64,000 nt of DNA from Pseudomonas sp. F1_0610 (GCF_047470865.1 NZ_JAZDRH010000008.1:37165-101164), one strand, 5' to 3'; counted from the stretch's first letter, positions 5,984 to 60,523 are shown. A program made the numbers and translations. The notes: a model not told the origin generated them from the letters alone.

Positions 5984-6011
5984 AAGCCCAGTTCATAGAG
6001 CTGGGCTTTTT
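5984..6011. terminator. bidirectional Rho-independent terminator
   Basis: AAAAAGCCCAG-ttcatagag-CTGGGCTTTTTAT: a GC stem flanked by an A-run and a T-run, between convergent genes. Confidence 0.65.
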
Positions 6012-6022
6012 ATACAAACACC

Positions 6023-6418
6023 TTAGAAGTTATATTTAATCTTCCACTGCCCATTATCTTTAATCAACATCCCTTTTTCGGTATGGGTTTTATTATTTTT
6101 ATAGATTATAAGCAAAGTAACATCGGCGCTCAGTTTATCTTCACTGTATTCAATACTGCTGAGCTTCATTGACTTAATACCACCATTTTTACTATTTTCA
6201 TACTCAATATTTTCTGAAAAAGCCCTTTCAACATTTTGCAGTACCTCTTCTGAAGTACCTTCAGGAAAGTAAATTAATCCGAGCACATCCTTGGTATTAT
6301 TGTTGATCACTCTAGCTTCTAAATCGCTAAATAGTTGTTCTGGCGTATCTTGATTCCCACCACAACCTGTTAATACAAAAATAGCCACTAACGCACTTAC
6401 AAACAGTTTTAATTTCAT
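6023..6418 (-). CDS. small lipoprotein (DUF4878-like), paralog 1
   Basis: Lipobox LTGCGG. 131 aa. C-terminus GQWKIKYNF resembles the other two small proteins flanking ycaO. Confidence 0.65.
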   Translation of the reverse strand: MKLKLFVSALVAIFVLTGCGGNQDTPEQLFSDLEARVINNNTKDVLGLIYFPEGTSEEVLQNVERAFSENIEYENSKNGGIKSMKLSSIEYSEDKLSADVTLLIIYKNNKTHTEKGMLIKDNGQWKIKYNF

Positions 6419-6453
6419 CTTTACTTCTCGTTCAAAAGTTAAACAACGGTTAG

Positions 6454-6888
6454 TTATTCAATCTTTATTTTCCAATTATTTTGACTTTTTTGCAGTAGCC
6501 ATTGTTCCTTAATTTTTTTATCGTGGGCATAAATAAAGATCACTTGAGCAATAGCCTGAGTATTGTCGGCTGCATACTGAATATCAGCTAACTCAATAGA
6601 AGCTAACGGCCCATGTTCAGCCAATAGCTGGTTGAATTTTAACTGTAGCCCTTGGCTAATTAAGCCAATTAACTCTTGGGGTACATCTTTATCTGAAACA
6701 TAGAAAAGCAACGCAGCTTTTTGCGTATCCTGTGTCACAACGGCTTCTTGATAAGCCTGAACTAAAGCTTCAGGTGTTTCTGTTACAGGCTGTGAACATG
6801 CACTCAGCAACAGCATTAAAAACAAGCTAATAAAGATTTTGCTTTGAGTTAACACACAACTTCTCCCTTGTTTGCAGCCCGCTGACAT
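6454..6888 (-). CDS. small lipoprotein (DUF4878-like), paralog 2; exact start uncertain
   Basis: Lipobox LLSACSQ. C-terminus NNWKIKIE. The N-terminal extension before the hydrophobic region suggests the true start may be an internal or alternative codon. Confidence 0.6.
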   Translation of the reverse strand: MSAGCKQGRSCVLTQSKIFISLFLMLLLSACSQPVTETPEALVQAYQEAVVTQDTQKAALLFYVSDKDVPQELIGLISQGLQLKFNQLLAEHGPLASIELADIQYAADNTQAIAQVIFIYAHDKKIKEQWLLQKSQNNWKIKIE

Positions 6889-30114: not shown

Positions 30115-31335
30115 CTAACCTTTCACACAGACTACTTGGCGTAATGTATGCACAATTTCCACAAGGTCAGATTGTGCTTTCATCACGGCGTCAATGTCTT
30201 TATAAGCCATAGGTGTTTCGTCAATAACATCTTCGTCTTTTCGACACTCCACATGAGCCGTTGCCTTTTTATGGTCATCAATACTGAACACCGATTTTGC
30301 TTTGGTGCGACTCATAACACGGCCAGCACCATGGCTGCATGAGCAAAAGCTTTCTTGGTTACCTAAGCCGCGCACAATAAAGCTTTTTGCGCCCATGGAG
30401 CCAGGAATAATACCCAACTGTCCAGATCGCGCAGAAACGGCACCTTTACGGGTTACTAGCACATTCTCACCAAAGTGATTTTCACGTTGCACATAGTTAT
30501 GGTGGCAGTTCACTGCCTCTAAACGACTGACAAAGGGTTTAGTGATAACTGATGCCACTGCCGCCAATGTATGTTCCATCATAATTTCACGGTTTACACG
30601 GGCGAAGTTTTGCGCCCAGTCGACTGCTTCAATGTAGTCATCAAAGTAGCTTGTACCTTCTGGCAAGTACGCTAAGTCTTTATCGGGCAAGTTAATCATG
30701 TAGCGTTCCATTTCTTGACGCGCCAGCCCAATAAAGTGTGTACCAATAGCATTACCAACACCGCGTGAACCGCTATGCAGCATTACCCAAACAGTGTTTT
30801 CTTCATCCAAACACAGCTCAATAAAGTGATTCCCTGTTCCCAATGTACCAAGGTGCTTATGGTTATTGGTTTTCGCTAAATGAGGGTACTTTTGCGTTAT
30901 TTGCTCAAACTTTGGTAATAACGCTGCCCATTGTTCATCAATATAGTTTGAGGTTTTATTCCAAGCACCTACATCACGGCGAGAACGTCCAGCGGAACGT
31001 CCGTGAGGTACCGCCTTCTCAATGGCAGAGCGGATTGCAAATAGATTATCTGGTAAATCACTCGCGGTTAATGAAGTGCGTACTGCCATCATTCCACAAC
31101 CAATATCTACACCAACGGCTGCTGGAATAATAGCGCCCTTGGTTGGAATCACGCTGCCAATGGTTGAGCCTTTTCCTAAGTGTACATCTGGCATGACTGC
31201 CAAGTGCTTAAAGATAAATGGCATACGAGCTGTGTTTAACAACTGCTCTTTGGCTTTATCTTCAACTGGCACGCCATTGGTCCACATACGGATAGGGGCG
31301 CCGCCTTTTTCAAACAAGACTTCATGGTTAATCAT
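30115..31335 (-). CDS. rtcB: RNA-splicing ligase RtcB (3'-phosphate/5'-hydroxyl RNA ligase)
   Basis: 406 aa. Near-identical blocks to E. coli RtcB (MPFIFKHLAVMPDVHLGKGSTIGSVIPT, GTGNHFIE, SFCSCSHGAGR, LRQVVCVKG). ATGA overlap with the upstream gene. Confidence 0.95.
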   Translation of the reverse strand: MINHEVLFEKGGAPIRMWTNGVPVEDKAKEQLLNTARMPFIFKHLAVMPDVHLGKGSTIGSVIPTKGAIIPAAVGVDIGCGMMAVRTSLTASDLPDNLFAIRSAIEKAVPHGRSAGRSRRDVGAWNKTSNYIDEQWAALLPKFEQITQKYPHLAKTNNHKHLGTLGTGNHFIELCLDEENTVWVMLHSGSRGVGNAIGTHFIGLARQEMERYMINLPDKDLAYLPEGTSYFDDYIEAVDWAQNFARVNREIMMEHTLAAVASVITKPFVSRLEAVNCHHNYVQRENHFGENVLVTRKGAVSARSGQLGIIPGSMGAKSFIVRGLGNQESFCSCSHGAGRVMSRTKAKSVFSIDDHKKATAHVECRKDEDVIDETPMAYKDIDAVMKAQSDLVEIVHTLRQVVCVKG

Positions 31336-32669
31336 TTTGCTATTCCTTTTAAATTCACTAAGCCGTTAAGTACTTGGTCTAAACCGCCAAATACGGAAAT
31401 TTTGTCGATACGCTCACACACACGCTCTAAGGTTTCTAACTCTTTTAAACGCAGCGCCACAGGGTTGTTTTCCATCACTTTGGCGGTATTAAGCAAAGAG
31501 CGGGTGGCCGCTGTTTCTTCGCGACGACGAATCACATTGGCTTGTGCTGCTTTTTCAGCCTCTATCACGCTAGATAAAATGGTACGCATTTCACCTGGTA
31601 AGATAATATCTTTTACGCCCATTGAGCCTATCTCTAGGCCGTATTGCGGAATACTCTGGCTAAGCTGTTCCGTCACCTGCTGATCGATAATTTCTTTATT
31701 TTCTAGCAGCTCATCAAGGGTGCGCGTACCTACTATTTCACGCAGTGCAAATTGTACTTCACGGTATAAAAAAGCCTCTGCATCTTGCATTGCTGCCAAC
31801 GCAGTTAGCACATCGACATAACGCCAGTTGATGACGAAATTCAGGCGGATGCTGACTTTGTCCTTCGTTAGGATTTCCTGGCCCGACATATCCAACACGC
31901 GCAAGCGTGTATCCACGGACTGCACAGCTACCGTATTGTGATATGTCCAAAAACCATAACTACCTGCTGGTAGTACCTGTTTTACTTCATCATCAACTTT
32001 TAACACACCCAAATGCCATGCTGGCACTGTAGACAATAAAAGACTCTTGCTGTCGATAGCTTTTTTATTCATCAATGGGCGCAAGCCTTTAAGCAGTTCA
32101 GGTTTGATCTCTAACTCAGCTAACGAAACAAACTCAACTTGCTGCTGGCTACCATTTTTCCACCATAAATAGCGGCTATTAGGTTCTAACAGTTCAGTTA
32201 AAACACCATCGACATAGCGCAAGCCAACTTGATGCTCAGCAACCTGCACGTCAATGCAATATTGCTTTACCCAATCAGCATGCTGATGGCGCAAGTTGTT
32301 CGCTAGCTCTTGACTAATGGCTCGCGTATTTAAGTGATGAACTTCATGTTGCTGTTCAATGCCATTTTTCCAATACAAATGTTGACTTGCCGGCTCAAGC
32401 ACTTGGGTCAAACGTCCATCAACATAACGTAAAGCAATCTGGTTATTATTTAAATTCACTTCAATGCAATACTTCTCTACCCATGCTTTATGGAAGCGGC
32501 GCAACTCTTTAGCTACGTCATTGGGCACAGGTTGATCTAAATTAAATACAACATATGCTGGCTTAATTAGCCAAAAGCGATATTCGCCTGTAGTTAATAC
32601 ATGGCTAAAACCATCCTTGTTTCGAACAAGTGCAATTTCGTTATTCTTTATAGTTACTTTATTCAACAT
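31332..32669 (-). CDS. cytoplasmic SPFH/band-7 (slipin-like) protein with tandem N-terminal repeats
   Basis: C-terminal roughly 230 aa is a typical SPFH domain (LTKDKVSIRLNFVINWRYVD...GLEIGSMGVKDIILPGEMR...AEKAAQANVIRRRE). The N-terminus has three repeats of a roughly 65-aa unit (IALVRNKDGFSHVLTTGEYRFW / IALRYVDGRLTQVLEPASQHLYWKNG / VGLRYVDGVLTELLEPNSRYLWWKNG). No TM segment. Confidence 0.8.
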   Translation of the reverse strand: MLNKVTIKNNEIALVRNKDGFSHVLTTGEYRFWLIKPAYVVFNLDQPVPNDVAKELRRFHKAWVEKYCIEVNLNNNQIALRYVDGRLTQVLEPASQHLYWKNGIEQQHEVHHLNTRAISQELANNLRHQHADWVKQYCIDVQVAEHQVGLRYVDGVLTELLEPNSRYLWWKNGSQQQVEFVSLAELEIKPELLKGLRPLMNKKAIDSKSLLLSTVPAWHLGVLKVDDEVKQVLPAGSYGFWTYHNTVAVQSVDTRLRVLDMSGQEILTKDKVSIRLNFVINWRYVDVLTALAAMQDAEAFLYREVQFALREIVGTRTLDELLENKEIIDQQVTEQLSQSIPQYGLEIGSMGVKDIILPGEMRTILSSVIEAEKAAQANVIRRREETAATRSLLNTAKVMENNPVALRLKELETLERVCERIDKISVFGGLDQVLNGLVNLKGIAK

Positions 32670-32856
32670 TATTGATTCCTTTTAAATTAACAAAGCAGCG
32701 GACTGTGGTGCGAAACATAACGGGGGCTTGCCTAAATCTCAGGTTTGCTTGCGTTTTATTCGGCAGTTTTATCGGCTGCTTCGGTGTTGTGTGTCACTTA
32801 GCTCACAACTAAATACAAATTGATATAGTCCAATTAAAAAGCCTTGGAGACTTTTT

Positions 32857-32990
32857 TGGTGCCGTTTGTAGGAGTCGAACCTACTCTTTCATGCAGAACA
32901 CAAAGCAGAAACACCATCGCGTCGCTTTGAGCTACCTAAGTTCAAGAACTTATGGTCAAGGCAAAAGCAAAAGAAATACCTCTAACAGCA
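32857..32990 (-). ncRNA. tRNA-like RNA element (candidate Y-RNA/YrlA-like or tRNA-derived leader) at the 5' end of the rtc operon transcript
   Basis: The minus strand reads ...GUAGG-UUCGACU-CCUAC-AAACGGC-A-CCA: a canonical T-arm (GGTTCGACTCC), a 7-nt acceptor 3' strand, a discriminator and CCA. A 5' segment GCUGUU near the predicted TSS can pair with AACGGC. No canonical D-arm or anticodon arm was found. Sits between the sigma54 promoter and the first CDS. Boundaries are approximate. Confidence 0.45.
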
Positions 32991-33000
32991 AAATATATAG

Positions 33001-33016
33001 AGCGAAAAGCGTGCCA
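33001..33016 (-). promoter_or_regulatory. sigma54 (-24/-12) promoter for the rtc operon
   Basis: The minus strand reads TTGGCACGCTTTTCGCT, i.e. TGGCACG-N4-TCGC with correct GG-N10-GC spacing. It faces rtcB and is divergent from the sigma54 activator gene rtcR. Confidence 0.6.
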
Positions 33017-33133
33017 ACTTTTAAAAATTAAAATTAACTATTTGATTTATATAAGTATTTTATTTTGTAGCGACTTTTTATCTTGTCTTGGTTATAGTTG
33101 CATTTCTATCTTTTTAGATAACTATTTATAAAT

Positions 33134-34714
33134 ATGGATAAAAAATCTAACATTCTTATTGGATTACTAGGCGTTACACTAGATATGGCGGGTAGGCACA
33201 GGATTAATCGTTGGCGCCCTAGTTATTCCCTTTGTGCCCAACCAGACTTGCCTATTACACGCTTTGAAATGCTGTATCAGCCTCATTATTCGCGGTTAGC
33301 CCATCAAGTTAAGCGAGATATAGAACTACACAGCCCCCACACGCATGTGCAGCTTGTGCAAGTAGATATTGAAGATCCATGGGATTTAGAAGAGGTTTAC
33401 AACCACTTATTGGATTTTTGCCAGCAATATTCTTTTGATACAGATAACGAAAATTACCTGCTCAACATCACTACAGGCACCCATGTTGCGCAAATTTGCT
33501 GGTATCTGCTTAATGAAGCGCATTATATTCCTGCCCGTTTAATTCAAAGCTCACCCGCTAAAAACCTACCAGAACGAGGCTATGGCACTTATTCAATTAT
33601 CGACCTTGATTTAAGCCGTTACGACAAAATTGCCAGCCGTTTTTCTCAGCAAATTGACAACTCAATTGCGTTACTTAAAGACGGCATAGCCACGCGTAAC
33701 GTGCGCTTTAACAGCCTGATTGATCAAATAGAAAAAGTCGCGGTACGCTCACAAGCTCCCATGCTATTAACAGGGCCAACAGGTGCAGGTAAATCCTTTT
33801 TAGCACAGCGTATTTTTCAACTTAAGAAACAACGTCAAGCCTTAAAGGGTAAGTTCGTTTCAATAAACTGCGCCACTTTACGTGGTGATAACGCCATGTC
33901 TAGCTTATTTGGTCACAGCAAAGGCGCCTTTACTGGTGCTATTAGTGCTCGCCAAGGCTTACTGAAAGAAGCTGATCAAGGGGTTTTATTTTTAGATGAA
34001 ATAGGCGAGCTTGGGCTAGATGAGCAAGCCATGTTATTAACGGCCATCGAAAACAAATGCTTTATGCCTTATGGCAGTGATAAGACGGTTGAAAGCGACT
34101 TTCAGTTAATTGCTGGCACTAACCGCCATCTTCCTGATGAAGTGGCTGCTGGGCGTTTTCGGGAAGATTTATACGCACGGATAAATCTTTGGTCATTTCG
34201 CTTATTGGGTTTAGCTGAGCGCCCTGAAGATATTGAACCCAACCTTGATTACGAGCTACGCAAATACGAACAACAGCATCAAGTCAATATTCGTTTTAGC
34301 CAAGAAGCACGTCAGCGCTATCTGGCCTTTGCTTGCAGTAAAGCTGCTTTATGGAAAGGTAACTTTCGTGAACTAAGCGCTTCTATTACGCGCATGGTAA
34401 CCCTAGCAGAAGCCAGCTGTATTAGTGAAGAGCAAGTCAACGAAGAAATAGCTCGGTTACGTGCTGATTGGTACGCCAGCGTACCTGCCACTACAATTGA
34501 TCTTCCTGTAGAGCATGAACTGGACTTATTCGATCAGTATCAGCTACAAGGCGTACTAGACACATGCCGCCGCGCCAGCAGTTTATCCGATGCAGGCCGC
34601 CAGCTATTTGCTATATCACGCCAACAAAAAGCCAACCCAAATGATGCCGATCGACTGCGTAAATATTTGGCGAGGTTCGGTTTGGATTGGCAAGGACTAG
34701 AACAACAGCCTTAG
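33134..34714 (+). CDS. rtcR: sigma54-dependent transcriptional regulator RtcR (CARF-like N-domain + AAA+ sigma54-interaction domain)
   Basis: 526 aa, collinear with E. coli RtcR (WRPS..LC, HITTGTHVAQICWYLL, GPTGAGKSFLA, GAFTGA, ESDFQLIAGTNR). Confidence 0.9.
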   Translation: MDKKSNILIGLLGVTLDMAGRHRINRWRPSYSLCAQPDLPITRFEMLYQPHYSRLAHQVKRDIELHSPHTHVQLVQVDIEDPWDLEEVYNHLLDFCQQYSFDTDNENYLLNITTGTHVAQICWYLLNEAHYIPARLIQSSPAKNLPERGYGTYSIIDLDLSRYDKIASRFSQQIDNSIALLKDGIATRNVRFNSLIDQIEKVAVRSQAPMLLTGPTGAGKSFLAQRIFQLKKQRQALKGKFVSINCATLRGDNAMSSLFGHSKGAFTGAISARQGLLKEADQGVLFLDEIGELGLDEQAMLLTAIENKCFMPYGSDKTVESDFQLIAGTNRHLPDEVAAGRFREDLYARINLWSFRLLGLAERPEDIEPNLDYELRKYEQQHQVNIRFSQEARQRYLAFACSKAALWKGNFRELSASITRMVTLAEASCISEEQVNEEIARLRADWYASVPATTIDLPVEHELDLFDQYQLQGVLDTCRRASSLSDAGRQLFAISRQQKANPNDADRLRKYLARFGLDWQGLEQQP

Positions 34715-55831: not shown

Positions 55832-56215
55832 ATGAGCCTTACCCCTGAACATTTGCGCTATGCGTCCACTCATGAATGGGCTCGTCTAGAAAATGACGGC
55901 ACTATCACAGTTGGTATTACAGATCACGCCCAAGAAGCCTTAGGCGATGTGGTTTATATTGAGCTACCTGAGCTTGGCAAGACCCTTCAAGCTAAACAGC
56001 AAGCCGGCGTTGTTGAATCCGTTAAAGCTGCTTCAGAAATTTACGCCCCTGTAACAGGTGAAGTGATTGCCGTTAATCTTGGACTAGCCGATGCACCGGA
56101 TAGTATTAACACTCATCCTTATGATAGTTGGTTTTATAAGCTCAAACCTAGCAATGCCAGTGAGCTAGAAGCCTTACTCACTGCTGCAGATTATCAAACT
56201 CATGTAGCCGGTTAA
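55832..56215 (+). CDS. gcvH: glycine cleavage system H protein (lipoyl carrier)
   Basis: 127 aa. Lipoyl-lysine region ESVKAASEIYAPVTGEV. Confidence 0.9.
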   Translation: MSLTPEHLRYASTHEWARLENDGTITVGITDHAQEALGDVVYIELPELGKTLQAKQQAGVVESVKAASEIYAPVTGEVIAVNLGLADAPDSINTHPYDSWFYKLKPSNASELEALLTAADYQTHVAG

Positions 56216-56242
56216 GCTTTAACCATTTGAAATGAGGCTATT

Positions 56243-57148
56243 ATGCAAACTGTATTACTGGCATTATGGCCTCTATTTGCCTTAATTGGCTTGGGCTATT
56301 ACTTACAACAACGAAAAATCTATAGCAGTGAGTTTTGGGCTGGAGCAGAACGACTTAATTATTTTATTCTGTTCCCAGCCTTATTAGTTGGCAGCCTTGC
56401 CAAAGCACCATTAGATAACCCTCAACTACCACGCTTAGCCTTAGCTGTTATTTTAGTGGTTACTATTGCATGGATTATTTTACAAATTGCCAAACGCTTA
56501 CTGAAATGGCCTGCCAGCCGTTTTGGGGTTAAAGCTCAGGGCATTATTCGCTTTAATACCTATCTAGGTTTGGCAGCTGTAAATACATTTTATGGCACCG
56601 AAGGCATGGCTATTGCTGCCTTAATTATGGCAGTCTTAGTACCCGCTGGAAATATCACTGCAGTCTGGGCATTATCGGCACAAAATGGTATCCACTGGCG
56701 CCAGCTTTTGATGCCCATTTTGAAAAACCCATTAATTCAATCCTGCATAGTGGGTGTACTAATCAACTTAACAGGCATAGGCCTTCCTTTTGGTACAGAC
56801 GAATTCTTAAAGCTAATGGCCGCCGCAAGTCTACCTTTAGGTCTGCTCTGCATTGGGGCAGCATTACAAACACAAACCATTAAAGATGAAGCCAAACCTA
56901 TTATTATTAATAGCCTATTACGGCTATGCTTGATGCCTTTATGTGCTTACATCATTGCTCGCCTGTTAGGTCTAGAGCAACTTGAATTGGTTCTACTGGT
57001 GATATTTTTTGCCCTACCTACTGCACCTACCGCCTATGTATTAGCCCGTCAGTTAGGCGGTGATAGCCAATTAATGGCAGGCATTATTACCTTGCAAACC
57101 ATTTTTGCAGCAATAACGTTGCCTATTATTATCAACCTTTTAAATTAA
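56243..57148 (+). CDS. AEC (auxin efflux carrier / malate permease-like) family transporter
   Basis: 301 aa with about 10 TM helices in the AEC pattern. Confidence 0.7.
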   Translation: MQTVLLALWPLFALIGLGYYLQQRKIYSSEFWAGAERLNYFILFPALLVGSLAKAPLDNPQLPRLALAVILVVTIAWIILQIAKRLLKWPASRFGVKAQGIIRFNTYLGLAAVNTFYGTEGMAIAALIMAVLVPAGNITAVWALSAQNGIHWRQLLMPILKNPLIQSCIVGVLINLTGIGLPFGTDEFLKLMAAASLPLGLLCIGAALQTQTIKDEAKPIIINSLLRLCLMPLCAYIIARLLGLEQLELVLLVIFFALPTAPTAYVLARQLGGDSQLMAGIITLQTIFAAITLPIIINLLN

Positions 57149-57157
57149 GGAGTTCAC

Positions 57158-57550
57158 ATGCAAGGTAGCTGTTTATGTGGCGCGGTCAGCTATGAAGTCG
57201 ATGAAATTATTAGCATCAAATTTTGTCACTGCCGAACCTGCCAGCTTGCTCAAGGTGCGCCTTATATTGCTGCTGGTGGCGTAAAACGTGAGCATTTCCG
57301 TTGGCTAACTGGCGAATCTTTAGTAACACGTTATGAATCTAGTCCTGGCAAGCATCGTTGTTTTTGCTCACGCTGTGGCACGCCACTGCTAGCGGATCGC
57401 GCTAACTTACCTCACATAGCGCTACGTGTTGTTACACTCAAAGAAGATCCAAAACTACGCCCAACTGAGCATATTTGGCTAAATGATGACTGCCCTTGGA
57501 CGTTAGATAGCCCTGACTTACCACGTCACCCTGCATGGCCAACGGTATAA
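57158..57550 (+). CDS. GFA (glutathione-dependent formaldehyde-activating, CENP-V-like) family zinc protein
   Basis: CxC...CxxC...CxxC pattern (CLCGAV, CHCRTCQ, CSRCGT). Confidence 0.75.
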   Translation: MQGSCLCGAVSYEVDEIISIKFCHCRTCQLAQGAPYIAAGGVKREHFRWLTGESLVTRYESSPGKHRCFCSRCGTPLLADRANLPHIALRVVTLKEDPKLRPTEHIWLNDDCPWTLDSPDLPRHPAWPTV

Positions 57551-57828
57551 AGTTCTCTGCGTTAGTGCATTGGTTAACAGCCGAGCAAGGCGGTAGGCAA
57601 GTCATACCGCCTCTTAGCACAACCTATTACTGCACTACAGAAGCCTTAGAAGGTAAAGATTCAAGCAACAGTTGGAGTATCGCTTGCCTTACAGAACAAA
57701 GGCATAACCGCACCAGCTTGGTTAGCGCTTGGTTTTTATTTGAAAATGCACCAGACCCAGCTTACTTAAAGTCCTTTAAATTATATGAAGGTGCTCGCTT
57801 AGTGGCTGTGCTTGAGATAATTGACTGA
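57535..57828 (+). CDS. small hypothetical protein
   Basis: 97 aa non-repetitive ORF that overlaps the GFA gene stop by 16 nt. Coding status uncertain. Confidence 0.3.
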   Translation: MANGIKFSALVHWLTAEQGGRQVIPPLSTTYYCTTEALEGKDSSNSWSIACLTEQRHNRTSLVSAWFLFENAPDPAYLKSFKLYEGARLVAVLEIID

Positions 57829-57848
57829 ACTCAAAAGCACTATATACT

Positions 57849-58409
57849 GTGCCTATGGAAAATAATAAATTTGAAAAAGCACTATATAACGTATTTAAAC
57901 AAGCTACAGAACGTTCTTTAGAAGAATACCTACTCGCGCTCTACCAACTACTCCCCAATAGCCCATCAGCGCCCTGCTCTCATGAGATTTTATTGCAACT
58001 ATTAGAGCACGCTTTCACTGCGCCTTTTACGCCCTACGCAAACCAATGGGACAAGGTCAAAGTTCCTGTAGATGATGATGAGATGGTCTGGCTTAAATTC
58101 ACCCATCCAGACGTTAAAAACCATGTGTCTAAACCACAGCTTGATTCTAGCCTCGATTACACCAAGCAGGTTATTCAGTTTCAAGTTAAAGAACTGCATA
58201 GTATGCGTGGCAAACAACTCGACAATGAATACCGCTTTTTTGGTATTAGCTCTGACAGTGGACACACATGGTACAACTTCACACCTGTTGATAACTTAAG
58301 CTGTGGCTTTGCGGGTTTAAGTGACAATCTAGAGGATGAAGAAACGTCTTTTAATATCTCATGGGGTTTTCTTGGGTTGTGGTTAGAAATGGGCCGTATT
58401 TATGAGTAG
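57849..58409 (+). CDS. hypothetical protein, translationally coupled to kptA
   Basis: 186 aa. Its stop overlaps the kptA start by 8 nt. Confidence 0.5.
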   Translation: MPMENNKFEKALYNVFKQATERSLEEYLLALYQLLPNSPSAPCSHEILLQLLEHAFTAPFTPYANQWDKVKVPVDDDEMVWLKFTHPDVKNHVSKPQLDSSLDYTKQVIQFQVKELHSMRGKQLDNEYRFFGISSDSGHTWYNFTPVDNLSCGFAGLSDNLEDEETSFNISWGFLGLWLEMGRIYE

Positions 58410-58962
58410 CCAGCCCTATAATGCGCTTAAACTCAGCCGTTTTTTAAGTTTAATCTTACGTCATGCCCCCGAATCTATTGGTTTAGAACTTGATAGCCAA
58501 GGCTGGGCTAAGATTAGCCAGCTACTCCCACTACTTAAAAAACGAGGTTTTAACCTCAGCTTTAACGAATTAGCGTCTATTGTTCAGAGCAACAATAAAC
58601 AACGTTTCATTATAAGCGAGGATAAGCAAAAAATTCGTGCCAACCAAGGCCACTCTATTCCCATCGACCTTGGTTACGCAGAACAAAAGCCACCAGCCAT
58701 TTTATTGCATGGCACTGCAACACGCTTTATTGAAAGCATTTTCCAGCAAGGCTTAACCAAGCAAAAACGCCACCATGCTCACTTATCCACTGACTTATCC
58801 ACAGCCGTCAGTGTAGGTAAACGCTATGGCAAAGCCGTCATTCTATGTATTGATGCGCAAACAATGTACGAGCATGGTTATCGTTTTTATCTTTCCACTA
58901 ATGGCGTTTGGCTAACCGAGCAAGTGCCCGTAGACTATATTTCCTATTATGACGCCAGATAA
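58402..58962 (+). CDS. kptA: RNA 2'-phosphotransferase (Tpt1/KptA family)
   Basis: 186 aa, collinear with E. coli KptA (LSRFLSLILRHAPESIGL, RANQGHS, HGT, HLS, VWLTEQV). Confidence 0.85.
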   Translation: MSSQPYNALKLSRFLSLILRHAPESIGLELDSQGWAKISQLLPLLKKRGFNLSFNELASIVQSNNKQRFIISEDKQKIRANQGHSIPIDLGYAEQKPPAILLHGTATRFIESIFQQGLTKQKRHHAHLSTDLSTAVSVGKRYGKAVILCIDAQTMYEHGYRFYLSTNGVWLTEQVPVDYISYYDAR

Positions 58963-59515
58963 ATTAAACCTACTCATTAGCGCTTTAGACGCCCAAGGTG
59001 TGGTTTTTATTAAAGGTCTATCAGACGCTGAAATAATAGCAATTGAAGCCACTTTTGATCTTTGCTTCCCCGACGACTTAAAAGCCTTCTTACAAGCGGC
59101 ACTTCCCGTTTCCCCAAGCTTTGTGAATTGGCGAGCAGCACTTAAATCTCCCAAAATAGTCTTAGATCGCTTAAGCATGCCTTTAGAAAGTCTATTATTT
59201 GACGTAAGAAAAAACAGCTTTTGGTTAAATATGTGGGGAGAAAAGCCAAGCCTTTTCGCTGAGCAAGCACATATTGTGACGACACACTACGCAAGCTACC
59301 CTAAGCTCATTCCTATTTACTCACATCGTTTTATGCCTTGCACACCGAGCAGTGCAGGTAATCCAGTTTTCTCTATGATGGGTACAGATATTATTTATTA
59401 TGGAACAAATCTATATAATTATTTAATTAATGAATTTTATTTAACCCTAGAAAAAGACAACAACCTCACTAAAACTATTCCGTTTTGGTCTCAACTAGTA
59501 GAACTAAATACCTAA
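58949..59515 (+). CDS. SUKH/SMI1-KNR4-like (immunity-protein-like) domain protein
   Basis: 188 aa. N-terminal LSDAEIIAIEATFDLCFPDDLKAFLQAALPVS fits the SMI1/KNR4 (SUKH-1) signature. Overlaps the kptA stop by 14 nt. Confidence 0.5.
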   Translation: MTPDKLNLLISALDAQGVVFIKGLSDAEIIAIEATFDLCFPDDLKAFLQAALPVSPSFVNWRAALKSPKIVLDRLSMPLESLLFDVRKNSFWLNMWGEKPSLFAEQAHIVTTHYASYPKLIPIYSHRFMPCTPSSAGNPVFSMMGTDIIYYGTNLYNYLINEFYLTLEKDNNLTKTIPFWSQLVELNT

Positions 59516-59726
59516 TTTTTGTTAATTAATGCATATATAAAATACCATCCAATCGACAAATTTAAATCTCGCCTCTATTAATACAAAAAATATTTTCTTA
59601 ATCTCGTGTCCGTGAACCTATTAACAACTTAATTTTTATCACCTGATATCATCCGCACGCTTTTTTAGTTGTTATGCAGTCGCTAAAAGCTTAAGGAATC
59701 ACATTAGAATAATTCAGGATAGATTT

Positions 59727-60523
59727 ATGCCGCATGCAGACTGCTTAATTATTTGGATAACAGGCGCATCTAGTGGAATTGGCTTGGCTCTAGCTAAACA
59801 GTTTGCAGAGCAGAACGTTGTTGTCATTTTAAGTGCACGTCGTGAAGCAGAGCTTGAAAATGTTCGCCAACAATTAAAAAACCCAAATCGTCATATGGTA
59901 TTGCCGCTGGATATCACAGATAGCGCTGCCCTAGTTAAAGCAACCTCTAAAGTAATTCAAGAATATGGGCGTATTGACTACCTAATTAACAATGCAGGGG
60001 TTAGCCAGCGTGCGTTAATTTTTGAAACCACTGAAAAAACCGATCGACAACTCATGGAAATAGGCTATTTCGCACCTGTTAACTTAACCCGCTGCGTACT
60101 GCCTTTCATGGAGCGTCAAGGTAGCGGCAAAGTTGTCTTTGTCTCCAGCGTAGCCGGTTTACTTGGAACACAATACAGAGCTAGCTATTCTGCTGCCAAA
60201 GCCGCTATTCATATGTGGGCAAACAGCTTACGTGCAGAGTATGCAACCAAAGGTATAAAAGTGGCGGTATCTTTCCAGGCTTTGTAAAATCAAATGTATC
60301 TGTTGCAGCACTGACTGGCGATGGCACCCCGCTTGGCTCAATGGATGACGCACAAGCAAATGCCATGAGTTGTGAAAGTTTCGCCCAGAAAGCTATTCAT
60401 GCGTTGAAAAATGATAAGGAATATATTGTTATTGGCGGTCTTAAAGAACGCTTAGGCGTACTTGTATCGCGCCTAAGCCCTAGCTTACTTTACCGCCTTA
60501 TCCAACGTAGCAAGGTCCGTTAA
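59727..60523 (+). pseudogene. SDR-family oxidoreductase disrupted by a 1-nt frameshift near 60268
   Basis: The N-terminal ORF (59727..60287) carries TGASSGIG and YSAAKAA...GIKVAV, then a stop. The C-terminal remainder (IFPGFVKSNVS...) continues in another frame. Restoring one nucleotide in gtggcggt-atctttcca would give a contiguous protein of about 265 aa. Confidence 0.6.

Follow-up and report, generated by a model that had tools for sequence, protein, structure and literature searches.

The locus considered here lies in a 64,000-nucleotide (nt) stretch of DNA from Pseudomonas sp. F1_0610 (GCF_047470865.1, NZ_JAZDRH010000008.1:37165-101164), the whole of which is called the window, and centres on kptA, the gene of an RNA 2'-phosphotransferase, which is enclosed between two genes of uncharacterised function, ORF3 and ORF5. 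The listing of open reading frames (ORFs) places five tightly packed ORFs on the + strand between 57158 and 59515, counted from the first letter of the window, with protein lengths in amino acids (aa):

57158-57550, + strand, GFA-family gene, 130 aa (Pfam GFA, E 5e-25)
57535-57828, + strand, ORF2, 97 aa, overlapping the stop of the GFA gene by 16 nt
57855-58409, + strand, ORF3, 184 aa from the ATG at 57855, the start in the NCBI record (P0121)
58402-58962, + strand, kptA, 186 aa, RNA 2'-phosphotransferase of the Tpt1/KptA family
58949-59515, + strand, ORF5, 188 aa, SUKH-fold protein of a divergent SMI1/KNR4-like clade

The stop of ORF3 and the start of kptA share 8 nt (ATGAGTAG), and the stop of kptA and the start of ORF5 share 14 nt. 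Both overlaps had been reported in a preliminary description of this locus, which gave ORF3 as 186 aa, the length from an alternative GTG start at 57849, and both are confirmed. The ORFs that it described lie where it placed them; the start of the span given there, 57535, is that of ORF2, on which it was silent. The cassette is flanked on the 5' side by the GFA-family gene and on the 3' side by a short-chain dehydrogenase (SDR) gene.

Judged by its sequence, the KptA encoded here is a canonical Tpt1 orthologue with intact R-H-R-R residues. PF01885 is matched over residues 9-174 of 186 (E 2.6e-51; 174.6 bits, cutoff 26), no secretion or trafficking domain being found in the protein, and the score against the NCBIfam equivalog NF002014 reaches 247 bits (cutoff 239). 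The solved tRNA 2'-phosphotransferase chain 7kw8 is ~60% identical (phmmer E 6.7e-60), a level that points to NAD+-dependent removal of 2'-phosphates by the window enzyme. R20-H21 (LRH), R79 (IRANQGHS) and R123 (KRHHAHL), which we take to be the catalytic Arg-His-Arg-Arg tetrad of Tpt1 enzymology, are present and invariant in alignment A4 and in the alignment with 7kw8. Tpt1/KptA is well understood as an enzyme; its purpose is obscure in most bacteria. The earlier remark that a physiological substrate is not known for bacterial KptA is still broadly fair, yet it needs qualifying, as the E. coli enzyme erases the 2'-phospho-U47 mark of tRNA in engineered E. coli, the writer of the mark being the kinase ArkI, homologues of which are present in some bacteria (PMC9095486). 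KptA has also been placed in the repair of RNase-cleaved RNA ends (PMC9503650). At the 80 metagenome loci sampled from the KptA side, 62 of them with 600 nt or more of upstream sequence, the genes that recur beside kptA are ADP_ribosyl_GH, NAMPT, NADAR, a metallophosphoesterase and a Sir2 fusion, matching the published neighbourhoods (PMC9503650). In one of them (L147, 3263-4702), Sir2 and KptA domains are fused in a single 479-aa ORF.

The SUKH/SMI1-KNR4 character that the preliminary description had assigned to the downstream protein is upheld at the level of the fold. The AlphaFold model of ORF5, from a 30-sequence alignment, has a pLDDT of 97.1 and a pTM of 0.90, and the SUKH alpha+beta fold is predicted with confidence. 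The sequence itself stays below the Pfam gathering scores (SUKH_5 14.6 bits, cutoff 27; SMI1_KNR4 15.3 bits, cutoff 25.4), the weak matches (E about 0.03) being confined to the N-terminal ~30 residues; the segment LSDAEIIAIEATFDLCFPDDLKAFL, quoted in the preliminary description, corresponds to residues 24-48 (59018-59092). A few homologues have a precomputed PF09346 match, and several are named 'SMI1/KNR4 family protein' by NCBI. A word-indexed search returned 283 homologues of ORF5, and relatives turned up in at least 552 species from many phyla when genomes were scanned. Across 30 sequences of the family 27 positions are invariant, and members from outside the window lineage are 44-54% identical to the protein of the window. 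A phage origin was considered and rejected: ORF5 had no match among 50,697 phage records, and neither the ORF5 family nor the ORF3 family was found in IMG/VR.

ORF3, whose protein is 100% identical to the hypothetical protein VQ643_06635 of Pseudomonas sp. F1_0610, is a member of an uncharacterised, mostly helical protein family, for which a profile of nine homologues retrieved 511 clusters (50% identity) among 1.84 billion representatives. Profile searches, which for ORF5 gave the weak SUKH match described above, gave for ORF3 no match in Pfam, NCBIfam or PADLOC. Likewise, the ORF3 profile matched no PDB sequence, its model had no fold relative in the PDB and no match among viral structures, no kinase motif or kinase fold was found, and a search of plasmids returned no match. 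Kinship with the 148- and 195-aa unknown proteins of Psychrobacter rtc operons was also considered and rejected (hhalign probability <1%). The contexts in which the family occurs without kptA are varied, and include a DNA_alkylation/RibD_C setting, a PIN-MazE pair, a restriction-modification/transposase island, the interval between iscA and hscB, an AAA_18 kinase-like gene, a YfbR-like HD gene, an array of small unknown genes and a solitary copy. In the iron-sulfur operon of L170-L172 (about 2213-2797 in L170), the ORF3 homologue P0129 lies between an iscA-like (Fe-S_biosyn) gene and hscB. Among P0141, P0153, P0163, P0173 and P0132, some are the C-terminal domains of ~520-aa proteins with N-terminal transmembrane segments and DUF3137, and one is fused to DUF6630; in these fusions the ORF3 module always forms the C-terminal end of the protein, mostly with the terminal motif GR(I/V)YE.

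The flanking ORFs are conserved beside kptA in related genomes; with this and the SUKH fold of ORF5, the two observations named in the preliminary description as able to refute it both came out in its favour. In two loci, L001 and L002, synteny with the window extends from znuA to bfr, and both have ORF3-kptA-ORF5, the proteins of the cassette being 69-78% identical to those of the window in L001 and 54-60% in L002. The ORF3/kptA overlap measures 8 nt in both, and kptA and ORF5 also overlap in both, by between 8 and 38 nt according to which start is called. In comparison with L001, dN/dS is 0.18 for ORF2, 0.06 for ORF3, 0.10 for kptA and 0.06 for ORF5, so that all four ORFs are under purifying selection, and synonymous sites are near saturation (dS 0.7 to >2). 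Such low ratios at near-saturated dS argue that the four ORFs are real genes under constraint. This would probably extend to ORF2 (VQ643_06630), which is otherwise isolated: a search of 5.8 billion proteins returned nothing but itself and the L001 copy, it had no match in Pfam, NCBIfam, PADLOC or PDB sequences, and it is not present at the syntenic locus L002. The GC content of the cassette (41-42%) is near that of its flanks (42-47%), and a signal of horizontal transfer was rejected on this ground.

Beyond the lineage of the window, adjacency to kptA recurs independently, with one case for each partner family. On the ORF3 side, the end of an ORF3 homologue shares 1 nt with the start of kptA in a locus found from KptA (L097), and contigs found from ORF3 (L173-175) carry P0125, 40% identical to ORF3, followed by kptA with a 1-nt overlap. 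On the ORF5 side, a metagenome-assembled genome (MAG) of Peptostreptococcaceae (L075) has an ORF5 homologue upstream of kptA, with a gap of 52 nt if the longest ORF is taken and of about 100 nt from the aligned KptA start. Our rough odds, which are not a computed statistic, put the probability of kptA in a given neighbour slot at ~5e-5, and hence, as a rough estimate, ~0.005 chance cases of kptA in the ~100 ORF5 neighbour slots and ~0.001 in the ~20 ORF3 slots. On the latter figure, it is unlikely that the coupling of ORF3 homologues to kptA in two unrelated lineages arose by chance.

ORF5 homologues are associated with a second set of RNA repair genes. In eight Psychrobacter genomes (L044, L061, L062, L064, L065, L067, L078, L089), an ORF5 homologue lies between rtcB and rtcA, in the order rtcB, a 148- or 195-aa unknown, the ORF5 homologue, DUF6847 (at most loci) and rtcA. 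A sigma-54-like site, TGGCACGCCCTT(A/C)GCA or the variant TGGCACGCTCTTCGCA, with one mismatch, was found upstream of rtcB at all four Psychrobacter loci scanned; rtcR is divergent from and adjacent to rtcB in L089, one extra ORF separating the two in L044 and L065. In a 4.2-kb contig of a Pseudomonadales MAG (L070), the ORF5 homologue is beside rtcB with the same kinds of extra genes, and the contig ends before any rtcA. The link of ORF5-type genes to rtc operons is confined to Psychrobacter and this one related MAG. The canonical rtc operons of E. coli and Salmonella are not known to contain a SUKH gene. The looser of the two proposals in the preliminary description, that of an RNA-end-processing module, thus gains support from ORF3-kptA pairs in unrelated contigs and from ORF5 homologues in rtcB...rtcA operons and beside a Clostridia kptA.

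A cognate-immunity position occurs once in the ORF5 family. On the Streptococcus sp. plasmid NZ_CP135437.1 (L182, 2519-5507), a family member starts 10 nt after an Rhs gene whose tip carries a PT-TG pre-toxin domain and a PF00545 barnase-type ribonuclease. This member is distant from ORF5 (26% identity) and securely related to it (hhalign probability 99.4%, E 5e-22), and the motifs WGE.P, HRYI, PVFS..DIIYY and FWS are kept. Elsewhere, ORF5 homologues have Imm7, YxiJ, Cys_rich_CPCC and DUF6756 as neighbours, and a 70%-identical homologue of the L075 copy sits in an array of DUF2625, the ORF5 homologue, WapI, unknowns and GNAT; the five further plasmid copies looked at are orphans, with IS elements, integrases or a PIN gene close by. 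In Acinetobacter (L036, L046, L055, L068; about 5989-6585), the ORF of an ORF5 homologue shares 1-4 nt with the end of an SbcC-like gene of 1,200 aa, an arrangement that, on gene order, ties the SUKH clade to an operon of a putative DNA-end nuclease. In the window, no barnase-like domain was found, and no toxin gene lies beside the cassette; ORF5 is not directly 3' of a toxin gene with a C-terminal toxin domain, its upstream gene being the canonical kptA.

We favour, with a rough probability of 0.45, the reading that ORF3-kptA-ORF5 is a translationally coupled accessory cassette combining immunity against RNase toxins with RNA-end repair. The cassette would then protect its gammaproteobacterial host against the RNA-cutting toxins of competitors, instead of being a toxin with its antidote. 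ORF5 is most likely an immunity-type binding protein, in view of the SUKH fold, the Rhs-RNase case and the arrays of immunity genes, and it is most likely an orphan here, since no toxin gene lies nearby; as such it may bind the RNase domain of an incoming toxin and block it. KptA would strip the 2'-phosphate from damaged or re-joined RNA in an NAD+-dependent reaction, which leaves a normal RNA backbone, the enzymology being established and the role at this locus conjectural. Terminal 2' or 3' phosphates are also removed by some Tpt1 enzymes. As for ORF3, it may direct or control KptA as its partner, or it may be a second protein of the immunity-like kind. The order of the genes, their overlaps, the purifying selection, the folds, the family memberships and the recurrence of the pairs are shown by the data, and the binding targets of ORF5 and ORF3, and the substrate of KptA in vivo, are inferred. 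ORF5 homologues recur with rtcB/rtcA and with kptA, which encode enzymes acting on the RNA ends that metal-independent RNases leave, and this recurrence suggests that immunity to RNA-cutting toxins and the matching repair sometimes come in one package. It has been reported that enzymes reversing RNA damage can act as immunity against RNA-targeting toxins, as in the case of PARG-type enzymes and an RNA-ADP-ribosylating toxin (PMC11833690).

A number of observations weigh against the combination of immunity and repair. The full trio was seen in one lineage only (window, L001, L002) and never elsewhere. In the sample taken from the ORF5 side (80 genome loci, 78 of them outside the window lineage), kptA adjoins one of the 78; among the 80 metagenome KptA loci, none is adjoined by an ORF5 homologue and one (L097) by an ORF3 homologue, so that 79 have neither partner family; kptA is absent from most of the distinct ORF3 contexts sampled; and the 70%-identical homologue of the L075 ORF5 copy has no kptA beside it. 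The cassette itself has no toxin gene, sigma-54 site or rtc gene beside it. The link to a toxin comes from a single locus, L182, and from a distant member of the family, and related RNase tips on Enterobacter, Bacillus and Streptomyces plasmids (L185-L187) are paired with barstar. The chemistry is likewise indirect. Barnase-type cleavage gives 2',3'-cyclic or 3'-phosphate ends, which RtcB and RtcA handle directly, and these differ from the 2'-phosphate that KptA needs, which makes the chemical link to KptA an indirect one. The ORF5 clade is also oddly conserved for an immunity protein, with its invariant positions shared across phyla, and this conservation would fit a fixed cellular partner at least as well. 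Finally, SUKH immunity proteins pair with many types of toxin (PMC3482391), so the target of ORF5 cannot be generalised from one case.

The restriction of the trio to one lineage also speaks for a simpler explanation, which we hold to be rather unlikely and still a serious contender, namely that kptA, ORF3 and ORF5, together with ORF2, are unrelated accessory genes at an insertion-tolerant spot, compacted in a small (3.1 Mb) genome, with ORF5 an orphan immunity gene and KptA acting as it does in other bacteria. Genes do turn over at this spot, as is seen from ORF2, which is found in the window and L001 and not in L002; the genes of the cassette evolve faster (69-78% identity to L001) than the flanking housekeeping genes (90-95%); the contexts of both families are mixed, ranging over GNAT, TPR, sbcC, the isc operon, PIN-MazE, kinase-like genes and IS elements or integrases; and no promoter or terminator signal above chance marks an operon. 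What such an explanation does not accommodate is the independent recurrence of the pairs (ORF3-kptA in L097 and L173-175, ORF5-kptA in L075, ORF5 within rtcB...rtcA), when chance adjacency to the rare kptA is expected, by the rough estimate above, in well under 1% of such samples, nor the retention of the overlaps despite saturating synonymous divergence. If the neighbours were nevertheless unrelated, the locus would be an ordinary patch of accessory genes.

The same overlaps, which suggest a fixed stoichiometry, may also be taken to indicate that KptA has accessory subunits or regulators in ORF3 and/or ORF5, which would attach to the enzyme or to its RNA substrate and determine how specific it is or when it acts, for example in an eraser of internal RNA 2'-phosphates like ArkI/KptA. 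The ORF3-kptA coupling is found in two lineages unrelated to each other, with ORF3 always first; conservation in the ORF5 clade is high, the polar residues H126, R127, N138, S142, D147 and E162 being invariant, which fits a fixed partner better than a fast-evolving toxin, and KptA does act as an eraser of tRNA 2'-phospho-U47 (PMC9095486). However, both families are missing at 79 of the 80 other KptA loci and mostly occur without KptA, there is no kinase in the cassette, and characterised Tpt1 enzymes work alone (PMC6097658, PMC6333775). That ORF5 homologues are also found beside rtcB/rtcA and sbcC, and after an Rhs RNase toxin, is a further argument against a role specific to KptA, and we consider such subunits distinctly improbable.

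A broader proposition, which is doubtful on present evidence, is that the ORF5-type SUKH clade and the ORF3 family are dedicated, hitherto undescribed partners of bacterial RNA-end repair enzymes (KptA, RtcB/RtcA). Were it true, bacterial KptA would work in the recovery from attack by RNase toxins, with ORF3 as a cofactor or regulator specific to KptA, and with the SUKH protein either as a blocker of the RNase or as an escort that brings damaged RNA or ribosomes to repair; the physiological setting that has long been sought for KptA in bacteria would be found, in the form of a testable three-protein system. Two conserved uncharacterised families, both of them tied to kptA in at least two lineages and one also to rtcB/rtcA, provide concrete handles in this respect. 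If ORF3 binds KptA, the natural substrate of the enzyme may be revealed. If ORF5-type proteins neutralise RNase toxins, immunity and RNA repair would be packaged together, as has been proposed in general terms (PMC11833690), though not for KptA or SUKH.

The preliminary description had leaned towards KptA as an effector with ORF5 as its antidote, and this found no support. In its general form, the idea is that KptA is a toxic RNA ADP-ribosylating effector neutralised by ORF5, or by ORF3 if the antitoxin gene comes first, as it usually does, on the model of DarT-DarG or Rhs toxin-immunity pairs. It is lent some appeal by the ADP-ribosyltransferase fold of the enzyme and its ability to ADP-ribosylate 5'-phosphorylated nucleic acids in vitro (PMC6582358, PMC10415124), by the mention of 'KptA/Tpt1-like toxins' as a possibility (PMC11833690), by the SUKH fold of ORF5, which is typical of immunity proteins, and by a compact, overlapping layout resembling toxin-antitoxin modules. 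Against this stand the identity of the protein, a canonical orthologue above the equivalog cutoff, ~60% identical to 7kw8 and devoid of a secretion or trafficking domain, and a pairing that fails in both directions, with ORF5 at none of the 80 KptA loci and KptA at one of the 78 ORF5 loci, where the order is opposite (L075). Moreover, Tpt1-type enzymes are routinely made in E. coli without an antidote. The PADLOC defence models returned no family for ORF2, ORF3, KptA or ORF5 at E up to 0.1, and the sole toxin-linked member of the ORF5 family faces an RNase and not an ADP-ribosyltransferase. KptA as a toxin was therefore rejected, on its canonical sequence and on the lack of pair conservation, and any such role is highly improbable.

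Regulatory features and the rtc locus of the window are as follows:

57821-57848, + strand, best sigma-70-like -35/-10 match (TTGACT-16-TATACT), directly before the ORF3 start; weak evidence
30115-31335, - strand, rtcB of the window rtc locus
31332-32669, - strand, Band_7/SPFH gene, 445 aa, its stop overlapping the rtcB start
33001-33016, - strand, sigma-54-like site TGGCACGCTTTTCGCT in the rtcR/Band_7 spacer
33134-34714, + strand, rtcR, divergent from the Band_7 gene

Promoter-like sites of the sigma-70 type are not enriched in the cassette region, with 5 found and 10.1 in shuffled sequence, and no convincing terminator was found after ORF5, where the spacer (59516-59726) has ~31% GC. The link to the RtcR regulon raised in the preliminary description is unsupported in this genome. 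No sigma-54 site (TGGCAC-N5-TTGCA-like, two or fewer mismatches) was found in 56100-59800, and the rtc locus is 24 kb away from kptA; control of the cassette by RtcR/sigma-54 was consequently rejected, a site with one mismatch inside the ORF3 homologue of L002 being kept in neither the window nor L001. The rtc locus itself (30115-34714) is unusual in its make-up, with a Band_7/SPFH gene accompanying rtcB, and no rtcA was found in the window. Downstream of the cassette, the SDR gene lies in two overlapping frames (59727-60287 and 60215-60523), owing to a 1-nt deletion at about 60269 relative to L001 and L002, whose copies are intact (264-265 aa). Either the gene is a pseudogene or the deletion is a sequencing error.

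The classes of component assembled at this locus are already known, namely Tpt1, SUKH immunity proteins and RNA repair operons. In the literature searched, which did not cover Burroughs & Aravind 2016 and in which texts naming both KptA and SUKH were left unchecked, we found no description of a SUKH clade with kptA or rtcBA, of an Rhs barnase-type toxin with SUKH instead of barstar, or of the ORF3 family with kptA, and none linking RtcB, SMI1 and 'RNA repair'. What the locus offers is a solid and testable lead on bacterial KptA biology, based on a handful of recurrences and not on a general rule. Set beside the SUKH immunity proteins and polyimmunity loci, such as B. subtilis YobK (Zhang et al. 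2012, PMC3482391), ORF5 of the window has no toxin gene adjoining it, falls below the Pfam SUKH thresholds and belongs to a clade that is unusually conserved across phyla. This clade is coupled to RNA repair genes (kptA or rtcB...rtcA), whereas 'KptA' and 'RNA repair' have no occurrence in a text search of that article. With barnase-barstar and Rhs-barnase/Imm-barstar pairs the likeness is one of position, the ORF5-family protein of L182 standing where barstar stands behind related RNase tips; the ORF5 fold is unrelated to that of barstar, there is one such case, and no RNase gene lies near the window cassette. The RtcR-controlled rtcBA operon (PMC7790460) is resembled by the Psychrobacter loci, where ORF5 homologues lie inside rtcB...rtcA operons of sigma-54 type, and the window does possess rtcR and Band_7-rtcB, 24 kb off; in contrast, a sigma-54-like site is lacking at the kptA cassette, and no rtc gene adjoins it. 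In the NAD+/ADP-ribose neighbourhoods of KptA (Iyer et al. 2022, PMC9503650), the enzyme belongs to the same family and presumably performs the same chemistry, in the company of 2H, Macro, NADAR, ADP-ribosylglycohydrolase, NAMPT and Sir2, whereas the window cassette lacks these usual partners and has GFA, ORF2, ORF3, ORF5 and SDR as neighbours. The ArkI-KptA pair (Ohira et al. 2022, PMC9095486) differs from the cassette in its kinase gene and in being a mainly archaeal, thermophilic system; it nonetheless gives KptA a defined physiological substrate, a mark that E. coli KptA erases in vivo.

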